Source of the DNA: Planctomycetota bacterium
GTDB taxonomy: Bacteria > Planctomycetota > GCA-002687715 > CAIWVZ01
Assembly: GCA_044222185.1 (NCBI GenBank)
Contig: JBGANV010000003.1
Span: forward strand, 800,001 to 864,000
Direction: 5' to 3'
DNA: 64,000 bases
Translations under genes and position numbers: made by a program
Part shown: positions 32,673 to 36,882 of the stretch, in pieces
Position numbering within the stretch: the first letter of the stretch is position 1
Layout: each line of letters opens with the position of its first letter
The notes under the pieces: model-generated
The model's database searches: none
Seen by the model: only the letters and a program-made list of their open reading frames with translations
What the model was told of the DNA's origin: nothing

Positions 32673-34112
32673 TCACCACACGAGCGTGCGGCGTTCCGTG
32701 AACAGGTCGAGTGCCCAGCGGACGCCCTCGCGTCCCAAGCCGGAGGCCTTCGTGCCGCCGTACGGCATGGAATCGACGCGCAACGTGGTCGCTTCGTCGA
32801 CGATGAGCGCGCCAACGTCCAGGTCGCGGAACAGCTGGCGGATGACGGTCGCATCGCGCGTGAACACGCTCGCCTGGAGACCGTATCGAGACCTGTTGAT
32901 GCGACCGACGGCCGCGCCCAGAGCGTCGTAGGTGTCGAGGGTCACCGCGGGGCCGAAAACTTCCTCGCATCCAAGCTTCGCACCGTCCGTGACGCCCTCG
33001 ATCACCGTGGGCTCGATGACGCGTCCGTTGCGCCCCCCGCCCGCCAGGAGGTTCGCGCCCTGGGCGCGCGCCTCGGAGATCCACGACTCGATGCGGTCTG
33101 CGTCGCGGTCGCGAAGCACTGGTCCCATCACGACGCCGAGCTGGCGCGGGTCGCCAGGCACGATGCGCGCCGTCGCCGCGAGGAATGCCTCGCGGAATCG
33201 GTCGGCGATCGACCGATCCACGAGAATGTGCTGGACCTTGATGCACACCTGACCGGCGTAGGCGAAGGCACCGAACGCGCAACGATCCGCGGCGCGCTGG
33301 ACGTCCGCGTCCGCGTGGACGATCGTCGTTGCGTCACCACCGAGTTCGAGCGCGACGGGCTTGCCGTGCGCCGCATCGCGCAGCGCCCACCCCACGGCGG
33401 CCGAGCCCGTGAACGACAGGACGCGCATGCGTGGGTCGGAGACGAGCGGCGCGGCGAACAGGTCGGCCTCCAGTGCCAACACCTGCAATCCAGGTTGAGG
33501 CCACCCTGCCGAGTGGATGATCCGAGCCAGCTCCAATGCCGTGAGCGGTGCTGCGGGCGCTGGCTTGAGGATCACGGGACAACCCGCTGCAAGCGCCGGT
33601 GCGACTTTGTGTGCCACGAGGTTCAGCGGGAAGTTGAACGGCGTGATCGCCGTCACGGGCCCAAGGGGCACGCGACGCACCAGGGCTTCGCGATTCTCGA
33701 GCCCCGGTCGCACGTCGAGTGGCACAATTTCGCCGTGATTCGTGGCCGCGACGTGCGCCGCATCCTTGAAGGTCGCGATGGCGCGGTCCACTTCGATGCG
33801 CGCGAGATCGACGGGCTTGGCGACTTCCTCCACGATGAGCTGCGAAAGCAGGTCGCGCCGCGCCGCGATGCCGTCGGCAATCGCCCACAGGATCTCCGCG
33901 CGGTGCCCCGTCGTGATCTGCGAGCAGGCTCGTCGCGCACCTTCGGCAGCGACGATGGCCCGCTCGACCTCTGCCGCACCACCCAACGCAACCCGACCAA
34001 GCGGCCGGCCGTCGCAGGCCGACACGTGGTCGAGCCAGTTGCCGGTAGTGACTTCCGCGCCAGCGATCAGGAGCGCGTGGTCCGCACCGCCACCGTCATT
34101 TCGAAGCGGCAT
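32673..34112 (-). CDS. aldehyde dehydrogenase family protein
   Basis: ITPFNFPLNL, KPA, SFTGS, LELGG, AGQVC (catalytic Cys), EEVFGP, PYGGTKASGLGREG. Confidence 0.93.
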   Translation of the reverse strand: MPLRNDGGGADHALLIAGAEVTTGNWLDHVSACDGRPLGRVALGGAAEVERAIVAAEGARRACSQITTGHRAEILWAIADGIAARRDLLSQLIVEEVAKPVDLARIEVDRAIATFKDAAHVAATNHGEIVPLDVRPGLENREALVRRVPLGPVTAITPFNFPLNLVAHKVAPALAAGCPVILKPAPAAPLTALELARIIHSAGWPQPGLQVLALEADLFAAPLVSDPRMRVLSFTGSAAVGWALRDAAHGKPVALELGGDATTIVHADADVQRAADRCAFGAFAYAGQVCIKVQHILVDRSIADRFREAFLAATARIVPGDPRQLGVVMGPVLRDRDADRIESWISEARAQGANLLAGGGRNGRVIEPTVIEGVTDGAKLGCEEVFGPAVTLDTYDALGAAVGRINRSRYGLQASVFTRDATVIRQLFRDLDVGALIVDEATTLRVDSMPYGGTKASGLGREGVRWALDLFTERRTLVW

Positions 34113-36882
34113 ATCCCTTGTATCCATCGGCGAGAAGCGGCAGCCACTTCTCGACACTGGCGTTCTCCCAGCCCCACGTGGAAAGGAGACTCTCCTTCGC
34201 GGGGTCGACGACGAGGTACTGCGGCATCCCCACTCCTAGTCCGAACTTCTTGAGCAGCGCGTTGTTCGCCGCGCGTCGTGCAGGGTCGATCTTCGCCGCA
34301 TCTCCATCGAGGTGCAGCTCCGTCATGACGAACTTGTTCAAGGCCGCACGGACCTCGGGCCGACTGCTGCCGAAGACTGACGCTTCGACGGCGCGGCAGT
34401 TGGGTCACGAGAAGCCCGTGAAGTCGATGAAGAGGGGCATCTGGAGCCTTCGAGCCTCCGCCAGCGCGCCGTCGTAGTCATCCACGAAACGCGCGGAGTG
34501 TCCCACGCGGCCGCTCGACACCTTGCCGATCACAGGCTTGCCGCCGCCGAGGCGCTCCTCGATGGCGTGCACGATACGCTCGTCGCGTTCGACGGCGTTC
34601 AAATGCTTCTCCACCGGCGGTAGCCACGAGTCGATGAAGGCGCCGAGCGGTTGACCACTCAGCCCGGTGAACAGGTAGACGCTGACCCAGAACATCACGA
34701 TCGCGAGCAGGAGGGCGACGACCCCCACTCGCTCCTTGGGCGCATCGTGCGGCAGCCGGATCTTGCCGAGCAGGTAGACGCCGGCAAGGGCGAAGAGGAC
34801 GATCCACGCCGAGAGGCAGACGTTACGCGTCAGAACGTCCCAACCCCGAAGCAGGTCCGTCGTCGACAGGAATTTGAACGCAGCGGCGAACTCGACGAAG
34901 CCCATGACGACCTTCGTCTCGTTGAGCCACCCACCCGCCCGCGGGAGCTTCTTGACGTAGCTCGGGAACATCGAGAGGAAGAGGAACGGCAACGCCAGCA
35001 CGCTGCCGAAGACAACCATGCCGAGCACCGGCCTCAGCCAATGGCCGGACCCGGCCGCGCCGGCGAGCAACGTGCCCACGAACGGCGCGGTGCAGGTGAA
35101 CGTCGTCACGGCGAAGAGGAGGCCCATCAACAAGACGCCGATGGGGCCGCCCTTCCCCTGGGCGGAACCGACGAGATTCAACAGCGCGGGCGGCAATTGC
35201 AACTCGAACATGCCGAACAGCGAAAGCGAGAAGAAGATGAAGAGCACCCCGATGAACAGGTTCGTCAGCCAGTGCTGCGCGAAGGTGTTGGCGCCGTCGG
35301 CTCCAAGGAACGCCGTGAACAGCGCGCCGATCAGCGTGAACGACGCGACGATGCCGAAGCAGTAGAGCAGGCTCATCATGACGGGCCGGCTGTTGCCGCC
35401 CTCGGCCTGCTTGGTGAAGAACGAGACCGTCACGGGAATCATGGGAAACACGCACGGCGTCAAGAGCGAGGCGGCCGCGGTCACCATGGCGATGATGATG
35501 AAGGTCAGGAGCGCCGTGCTCACGCTGAATTCACCGGCGAATGGCGCGCGCACGTCACCCAGCTGGACCGATCCCTTGAACGCGAATGTTCCGTCGACGG
35601 TTTCGGCTGCGAGCTTCACCGGCAGAGACACCACGACGCCCGCGGCGTCGTCGATGACGGCCGCCTGTCCGGCGACGAACAACCCGGCCGCCGTGAGGCT
35701 CACGTCCGCGGACGTGCCGGGAGCGACGTGCAAGCCGGGGAAACGGATCATCATCACGCCCGTCTTGCTCGCTTCGAGCTTCGGCGGATCGAAGGTGACC
35801 GTGCCGACGGGAACCGCCGCCGCGCGCGTGTCGGACCTGGGCGCTGGCGCCTTGCCGTCGTCGCTGGGCTTCTTCGGAGGATCGCCCTTCGTTCCCTCGA
35901 CCGGCGGGGCCGCGTCGCCGCGGACGTCGACCGAGAACTCGAACTCGGCCTTCGACGGAGGAAGGCAGCCCTGCATGGTGCAGGTCTGGTAGTCGATCGC
36001 GAAGTGGACGATGCGCCGGCCGGCTGGACCGCTCACGGTGACGGGAACGGAGAAGCTCACGGTCTTCTCCCAATAGGCGAACTTCTCGTGCTCCGTCTCG
36101 AACGGCTTGGCGGGACGATCGGGCACGGGCTTGCCGCTGACGGCGACGAGCTTCTCGTCGGCGCCGGTGCCGGCGGCCGAGAAAGACGTCGGTGTCTCGA
36201 ACTGGCCCACCTGCTCCGTGCTGTAGATGTGGTAGGGCGCCGTCATCTCCACGTCGACCTTCACGTCGAACTTCTCGCCGGACACCACGGCCTTGGGGTG
36301 GATGATCCTCGTGACCTGGAAGGGGTCCGTCGCCTCGAACTCCCCGAGTCGCTTGGGCGGCTTCAGCGTGACGACGTCGCCCTGCGGTGCGCCCGACGGC
36401 GGAACGACCCCGGGCTTGGATTCGGCGTCGCCCTTCGTCGCGGGAAGCGCGACCTTGAACGGCACCTCACCGCCGGGGAGACAGGAGTTTTCGTCGCAAG
36501 CCGTCACGGACAGGTGCCCCTTGACCTCGGTTCCGGGCTTTCCTGTCGACGTCAGCGTGGCGGTGAAGGTGACCTCGCCCTCGTGGTAGTCGTACTCCTC
36601 GACGTAGCCGCCCTCGAACTCCTTCCTGTGATGCTTCGGAACGGGCTCGGAGGGAGTGCCCTTGAGGGCGCGCGGGCCGTCGTCCAGCGCGATGTTCGTC
36701 GTGTTCCCCTCGCCGCCCTTCAGGGAGTAGATGTGGTACCCCGCTTCGACGGCGACGGTGATGACGAGGCTCTCCCGCTCGATCGCCACGCGCTTCAGCT
36801 CGACCTTCGAGGACGAATCTGATTGGGCGAACGACGCCGCGACGAGCACCGCGGCGAAGAGGGGCGTCAACGATCGTGGCAT
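34096..36882 (-). CDS. dsbD: thiol:disulfide interchange protein DsbD, probable selenoprotein (in-frame UGA at 34405-34407, UxxC)
   Basis: Signal peptide; DsbD-alpha domains (YHIYS...ACDENSCLP; YHIYS...TCTMQGCLP); TM domain LTPCVFPMIPVT and FTCTAPFVG; thioredoxin domain IDFTGFS*PNCRAVE continues in frame to the stop at 34096. Confidence 0.88.
34363..34400 (-). promoter_or_regulatory. candidate bacterial SECIS element
   Basis: Directly 3' of the UGA: lower stem ACUGC/GCAGU, upper stem GUCGAAG/CUUCGGC, loop CGUCAGU starting 22 nt after the UGA. Confidence 0.62.

Follow-up and report, generated by a model that had tools for sequence, protein, structure and literature searches.

An in-frame UGA probably read as selenocysteine in a DsbD-type protein-disulfide reductase from Planctomycetota

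Background

The question raised by this locus is whether the gene of a DsbD-type protein-disulfide reductase in a Planctomycetota bacterium ends where its open reading frame (ORF) appears to end, at a TGA placed on the attacking cysteine (Cys) of its last domain, or whether this TGA is read as selenocysteine (Sec, U) and the gene continues. The gene lies on the minus strand of a 64,000-nt stretch of DNA (assembly GCA_044222185.1, contig JBGANV010000003.1, positions 800,001 to 864,000 of the forward strand), hereafter the window, to which all positions refer unless another contig or locus is named. An earlier note, made from the letters of the window, had proposed a hidden Sec-containing DsbD with a UxxC motif at this place, overlooked by automatic annotation. 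Our analysis supports this proposal through the Sec machinery of the genome, the alternation of Sec and Cys codons among homologues, the selection acting downstream of the TGA and contigs of independent origin. We consider it very probable that the UGA at 34405-34407 is read as Sec and that the gene encodes one three-part DsbD-type protein-disulfide reductase of 928 residues (Sec-DsbD hereafter).

Results

Reading frame across the TGA

The features on which the argument rests are the following.

34405..36882, minus strand: apparent ORF of 825 amino acids, with an ATG start, ending in ...PLFIDFTGFS and then TGA
34099..36882, minus strand: predicted complete Sec-DsbD coding sequence, 928 codons, followed by the probable true stop, the TGA at 34096-34098
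34405..34407, minus strand: UGA codon, probably U826, first position of the U-P-N-C redox motif (assigned from codon alternation, Sec machinery and independent contigs)
34396..34398, minus strand: Cys829, the presumed resolving Cys of UxxC, invariant in a 27-sequence alignment (C65 of P0122)

Translation reproduces exactly what the earlier note had described, namely an 825-residue ORF that stops at a TGA beyond which the same frame goes on for 102 residues (PNCRAVEASVF...NKFVMTELHLDG...GMPQYLVVDP...) to a second TGA at 34098-34096. When TGA is translated as U, the open frame holds a single internal UGA and reads ...RRLQMPLFIDFTGFS-U-PNCRAVEASVFGSS...GMPQYLVVDP...YAASK before the stop; the expected protein of about 928 residues is thus borne out by 928 codons, and full-length Cys-form homologues align with it from end to end.

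The TGA is found without any difference in contigs from two independent runs of two other studies (X2, covering 34357-34557, and X7, covering 34195-34654), which confirms at the level of contigs the codon that the earlier note had wanted checked. Note that a metatranscriptome run (X19) yielded two 151-nt contigs within the gene (34845-34995 and 35066-35200), none of them crossing the TGA; contigs from an RNA library are no proof of transcription, and these count neither for nor against.

Alternation of selenocysteine and cysteine codons among homologues

Most homologues found among 40 relatives carry one in-frame TGA in their C-terminal part. Using these together with 401 genomes sampled evenly across the phylum, we compared the aligned codon in 34 distinct homologous loci: it is TGA in 24 of them (the window included) and TGT or TGC in the remaining 10, with no other codon observed, so that the TGA falls on the first Cys column as the earlier note had stated and alternates with Cys codons as it had suggested looking for. 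Residues 562-928 were matched in 200 of the 401 sampled genomes. Among the 150 matches listed (52 more lie beyond these), 87 span the Sec column, and the other 63 end in the linker and are uninformative on the site; one in-frame TGA is present in 71 of the 87 and none in 16, which shows that the TGA is not peculiar to this strain. The Sec synthase gene selA was detected in 290 of the 401 genomes, and Sec use therefore seems to be the norm in Planctomycetota and not a rarity. According to a cross-tabulation by hand of the matches listed, 70 of the 71 genomes with TGA also have selA, as do 13 of the 16 that lack a TGA.

In addition, a pattern scan for (D/N)FTGxx-TGA-xNC(R/S), with one genome per species, returned at least 119 stretches. 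Eighty of them were fetched, of which 70 proved to be true homologues and 10 chance matches (about 17 had been estimated beforehand), and in 69 of the 70 the membrane core and the thioredoxin domain stand in a single locus. According to the deposited titles, these 70 homologues come from Planctomycetota (58), from entries named plainly 'bacterium' (8), from Armatimonadota (2), and from Bacillota and Chloroflexota (1 each). In three loci of the scan (L074, L081 and L136), the Sec thioredoxin domain lies upstream, and not downstream, of the DsbD_TM-like match, which may reflect a different gene order or architecture.

A quick maximum likelihood tree of the 34 loci (IQ-TREE, Sec/Cys column masked, unrooted) follows the genome taxonomy and needs four Sec/Cys changes, two of which are forced by well-supported branches. 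As an example, the Cys clade of a sister genus, within the own family of the window, is nested in a clade (Shimodaira-Hasegawa-like approximate likelihood ratio, SH-aLRT, support 99) whose other 17 rows are all Sec, and this nesting suggests that Sec was replaced by Cys in the sister genus, with a direction deduced from an unrooted tree.

Conservation of the coding sequence after the TGA

The frame remains open for 85-110 codons past the TGA in all 21 TGA loci examined. The ratio of nonsynonymous to synonymous substitution rates (dN/dS) for this part, computed in 12 pairs, is 0.011 (L068/L038, with a dS of 0.74) and 0.13 (L045/L047) in the two closest pairs and 0.28-0.76 in nine more distant ones, one pair (L049/L048) having no dS estimate. 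Moreover, the invariant columns of the 27-sequence domain alignment are T, G, the Sec/Cys column, C829, the cis-Pro P887 and Y889. The decaying downstream domain, which the earlier note had named as a possible outcome, is thus not what we observed, and the substitution pattern indicates that the part after the TGA is under purifying selection and is not debris.

Selenocysteine machinery of the genome

The genome to which the window belongs (7.08 Mb in 16 contigs, 93.8% complete) contains the whole set of genes that the earlier note had proposed to look for (selA, selB, selD and tRNA-Sec), each above its curated cut-off: selA with 487 bits, selB with 330 bits, selD with 371 bits and, directly after selA, a tRNA-Sec (C1:1632625-1632719) with 74.7 bits against a cut-off of 47. 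The latter is called tRNA-SeC(tca) by ARAGORN and has an 8-bp acceptor stem, a G73 discriminator, a long extra arm and the anticodon UCA. The selD gene (C14:427704-428624, L018:1441-2460) itself carries one in-frame TGA in ...LSPGGGUACKIGP..., and an 8-bp hairpin spans about +29 to +47 from this UGA. We take this position (GGGUACK) to be the one at which Sec-type SelD proteins carry Sec; by its in-frame TGA, the selenophosphate synthetase SelD would itself be a selenoprotein in this genome.

A reassignment of TGA across the whole genome was rejected as well: TGA remains the usual stop, terminating 4566 of the 5556 frames that run from stop to stop over at least 400 codons, and the genetic code is therefore not reassigned.

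A hairpin downstream of the UGA

Downstream of the UGA, the following candidate for a Sec insertion sequence (SECIS) was identified.

34359..34397, minus strand: SECIS-like hairpin, +11 to +49 from the U of UGA
34383-34389 and 34369-34375, minus strand: core 7-bp stem (+19-25/+33-39), enclosing the loop CGUCAGU at 34376-34382

The hairpin (about 40 nt from +11) has a minimum free energy (MFE) of -19.1 kcal/mol; compared with 300 dinucleotide shuffles, its z-score is -3.36. Of the 24 TGA loci, 20 have a hairpin with 6-10 uninterrupted base pairs located at about +14 to +41, in a register that varies between lineages, and the longest stem averages 7.4 bp in the 24 TGA loci versus 5.2 bp in the 10 Cys loci (Mann-Whitney p = 0.0004; the rows are related, so that the p values of this stem test and of the MFE test given in the Discussion overstate the significance).

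Domain architecture of the protein

The following domains were delineated along the protein.

36472..36798, minus strand: first nDsbD-like (alpha) domain, residues 29-137 (Pfam DsbD_N, PF11412, E 2.6e-14), with the Cys pair of ...TACDENSC...
35893..36324, minus strand: second nDsbD-like domain, about residues 187-330, a second DsbD_N stretch with approximate bounds
34672..35517, minus strand: membrane core (beta), residues 456-737 (Pfam DsbD_TM, PF02683, at 464-672, E 5.7e-25)
34099..34497, minus strand: thioredoxin-fold gamma domain, residues 796-928 (Pfam Thioredoxin_7, PF13899, at 800-894, spanning the UGA)
34222-34224, minus strand: codon of P887, in the cis-Pro loop of the gamma domain

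Each nDsbD-like domain contains a C-x4-C pair (C129/C134 and C301/C306), the second of which (YQTCTMQGC) is invariant in the homologue alignment, as are the core cysteines C477 (LLTPCVFP) and C597 (TFTCTAPF). The membrane core, whose PF02683 match reaches 88 bits against a cut-off of 27, displays seven clear hydrophobic segments and one weaker. Between the second nDsbD-like domain and this core lies a stretch of about 110 residues that has no Pfam match (35518-35860, residues ~340-455) and that is conserved in long homologues (>800 aa) and missing in Cys forms of about 620 aa.

In the AlphaFold model of residues 765-928 (mean predicted local distance difference test, pLDDT, 88.8), the domain adopts a thioredoxin fold with Sec immediately before helix 63-71. 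The top Foldseek matches of this model are 3f9u, DsbH (2ju5) and the cDsbD structures of E. coli and Neisseria (2fwe, 1uc7, 1vrs_D and 6dnu), and comparison by sequence gives just two solved relatives, 3f9u for the gamma domain (motif DFTGYGCVNCR) and CcdA (5vkv) for the membrane core. The protein starts with a signal-peptide-like N-terminus; together with about eight membrane helices, as in DsbD, and the homology to DsbD gamma, this would place the gamma domain in the periplasm.

This gene is the sole PF02683 (DsbD/CcdA-family) match found in the genome, which is about 94% complete, and no paralogue of the gamma domain was found there. The same genome encodes two ResB/CcsA pairs (System II cytochrome c maturation), and known System II systems need a CcdA/DsbD-type supply of reductant.

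Public gene calls

Among the best 120 public protein clusters, 93 have the Cys motif (D/N)F(T/S)GxxCxxC, 25 end at the TGA and 2 are full-length but do not fit the motif pattern used. The first group, together with the nearest solved structure (3f9u), agrees with the DFTGxxCxNCR motif that the earlier note had given for this class of DsbD, and the second shows how public gene calls hide the Sec form, as it had expected: the 25 short clusters stop at the TGA, with exactly two residues beyond FTG, and one of them was named 'protein-disulfide reductase DsbD domain-containing protein [Planctomycetota bacterium]' by NCBI. None of the NCBIfam models reaches its cut-off on the complete protein (TsoB, 124 bits against 805; DsbD, NF001419, 105 against 330; Trx7/PDZ selenoprotein, 22 against 300).

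Neighbouring genes and other observations

The neighbours of the DsbD gene, which encode an aldehyde dehydrogenase, a metallo-beta-lactamase-fold protein and a transketolase-like protein, are functionally uninformative. The start of the aldehyde dehydrogenase gene (Pfam Aldedh) falls inside the 3' end of the DsbD gene, in its final 17-32 nt (34096-34127, minus strand); the candidate ATGs at 34127 or 34112, read off the sequence, give an overlap of 32 or 17 nt, respectively. The overlap announced by the earlier note is therefore real, but the two genes lie in different frames and there is no ATGA stop/start overlap. This arrangement suggests co-transcription or translational coupling of two genes unrelated in function. 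Elsewhere in the genome, near-identical predictions of tRNA-Ser(tga) stand at several contig ends (C2:10-97, C5:10-97, C5:73231-73318 and C6:790270-790357), as if a repeated element bearing this tRNA broke the assembly, and ARAGORN also reported four-base anticodon loops in two tRNA-like genes (C6:67202-67296 and C14:193119-193217).

Discussion

Alternative explanations of the TGA

A sequencing or assembly error, or a fresh nonsense mutation specific to the strain, would explain the TGA, and has in its favor only that the genome is a 16-contig assembly. Since the identical TGA at 34405-34407 is seen in contigs of two other studies, and since TGA occupies the site in 23 other genomes checked by codon and in the 70 further verified loci of the pattern scan, this explanation is excluded, and we give it a negligible probability. 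If the TGA were instead a true stop, the product would be an 825-residue DsbD devoid of its gamma domain, with the following 102 codons either a pseudogene remnant or translated separately. Gene callers agree with such an end, as do the 25 short public clusters, and a shortened by-product is indeed likely under selenium shortage. However, 24 loci from several families share the TGA at this codon, with Cys as the only alternative residue, and the downstream frame, open in every locus examined, appears to be under purifying selection with its catalytic Cys and cis-Pro invariant. Likewise, no stand-alone relative of the gamma domain with a size of 90-287 aa was found in the public protein collection at E <= 1e-5 (in a search limited by its word index), and we therefore regard a true stop as very improbable.

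The UGA may also be read through as Cys, the alternative that the earlier note had named, or as another standard residue, by means of a Cys-charged tRNA(Sec)-like tRNA or of near-cognate suppression. The Cys present in 10 of the 34 homologous loci indicates that a Cys product would work. Against this stand selA and selD, which are needed only for Sec and are both present and intact, the UGA that selD has at its own Sec/Cys site, and the presence of selA in nearly all TGA-bearing genomes among the matches listed. In the same sense, the tRNA has the traits of a serine-charged tRNA(Sec), with an acceptor stem of 8 bp, a long extra arm and G73, which under the usual identity rules is not a Cys-type discriminator, and we hold read-through as a standard residue to be improbable. 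Several observations weigh against the reading of the UGA as Sec. In 47 of the 71 genomes with TGA, the evidence is a count of one TGA somewhere within a match covering the column, and one TGA-bearing genome (G239, 90% complete) has no selA at E <= 1e-40. The remaining points concern the hairpin: with other bounds of the folded segment, its z is only -1.05 to -1.31 and not significant; the MFE z of TGA loci differs marginally from that of Cys loci (-1.78 vs -1.09, p = 0.058); and the pairing is partly intrinsic to conserved Glu...Phe codons (GAR/UUC), which are present in Cys forms too. Furthermore, RNAalifold found 0 pairs, and thus neither a consensus nor covariation, in the 24 TGA-bearing stretches of 60 nt, as the register differs between lineages, and an Rfam scan of 33900-34700 returned no family, with a chance microRNA match (E 4.4) as its only result. 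The hairpin is consistent with a bacterial SECIS and is not a proof of it, which makes it the weakest link of the case for Sec.

Comparison with known systems

The protein resembles the DsbD of E. coli and Neisseria in having an nDsbD domain, a two-Cys DsbD_TM core and, at the C-terminus, a thioredoxin-fold domain that bears a redox pair, and its gamma model matches the cDsbD structures (2fwe, 1uc7, 1vrs and 6dnu) with TM-scores, normalised to the target, of 0.68-0.76. It differs from them in carrying Sec, on our reading, for the first Cys, two tandem nDsbD-like domains, an extra region at 340-450 and a gamma motif of the form DFTGxx(U/C)xNCR, and in remaining below the cut-off of the NCBIfam DsbD model. 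This score marks the protein as belonging to a remote class within the DsbD superfamily and not to the E. coli-type subfamily. Its closest solved relative, 3f9u (E 7.7e-10; Foldseek E 4e-9), is a structural-genomics entry for the C-terminal domain of a putative exported cytochrome c biogenesis-related protein from Bacteroides fragilis, and has Cys instead of Sec. Note that PF13098, which several homologues carry in precomputed lists, had no match in Sec-DsbD at E <= 0.01.

The model cd02953 is, we assume, that of DsbD-gamma, which would make the GOS Trx-like 2 class the same type of domain as the one described here. This class ('thiol:disulfide interchange protein'/GOS Trx-like 2, printed in 2008 with cd02953) shares UxxC in a thioredoxin-fold domain; the domain-level fact, Sec in a DsbD-gamma-type domain, has thus probably been in print since 2008, after a family of the same name from 2004, provided that this assignment of cd02953 holds. 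The printed tables on these classes list no architecture and contain no mention of DsbD, PF02683 or PF13899. A selenoprotein with a DsbD-type membrane core is already known in TsoB, described as a rhodanese/DsbD fusion-like protein with two Sec in UxxxxU (NF045694; PMC13188914). TsoB gives the best NCBIfam match to our protein, which is confined to the membrane core (residues 455-729) and falls far below the cut-off; in contrast to TsoB, Sec-DsbD has no rhodanese match and one Sec in UxxC. The same review of 2026 presents Sec for the first Cys of a thioredoxin-fold CxxC as the commonest design among predicted bacterial selenoproteins, and its table, as far as available, names DsbD once, for TsoB, and has no PF02683 or PF13899 entry (PMC13188914). 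No DsbD entry appears in the Planctomycetes selenoprotein table S9 of PMC4807772, and a full-text search with the names DsbD, DipZ, CcdA and ScsB found no paper describing a Sec-containing DsbD. Altogether, Sec-DsbD is very probably a real selenoprotein, of a familiar kind and not a new principle, UxxC thioredoxin-fold selenoproteins being well known; gene callers regularly cut such genes short across many Planctomycetota.

Proposed mechanism

During translation, the hairpin, starting 10-18 nt past the UGA, would recruit SelB with Sec-tRNA(Sec), and Sec826 would be inserted as the attacking residue of U-P-N-C, at the N-terminus of helix 1 of the gamma domain. The electron path of E. coli DsbD is established, and the 1vrs complex is among the fold matches of our gamma model. 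By analogy, electrons may pass from cytoplasmic thioredoxin to the membrane pair Cys477/Cys597 and on to U826/C829, which would form a selenylsulfide pair at the outer face. The Cys pairs of the nDsbD-like domains (C129/C134 and C301/C306) would receive them next and hand them over to clients in the envelope, for instance the machinery that matures cytochrome c in System II. The incorporation of selenium, the binding of SelB, the topology and the electron path of Sec-DsbD are all put forward here as predictions.

Conclusions

Because this gene is the only DsbD_TM match in a genome with two ResB/CcsA pairs, envelope reduction in this organism may hinge on selenium. It is also possible, and we put it forward tentatively as an idea that is rather unlikely to hold in full, that the Sec form is the usual and probably the older DsbD in much of Planctomycetota and the sole DsbD/CcdA-type conduit in such genomes. 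In that case, the reductive side of envelope thiol chemistry as a whole, System II included, would run through one selenium atom and depend on selenium supply. The Sec and Cys forms that occur inside one bacterial family offer a natural pair with which to see what selenium buys a transmembrane thiol relay. The main interest of the finding lies in the repair of annotation, as a Sec-aware model would correct it in at least 70 verified species-level genomes and probably in many more, and in the possible dependence of envelope reduction on selenium in many Planctomycetota.

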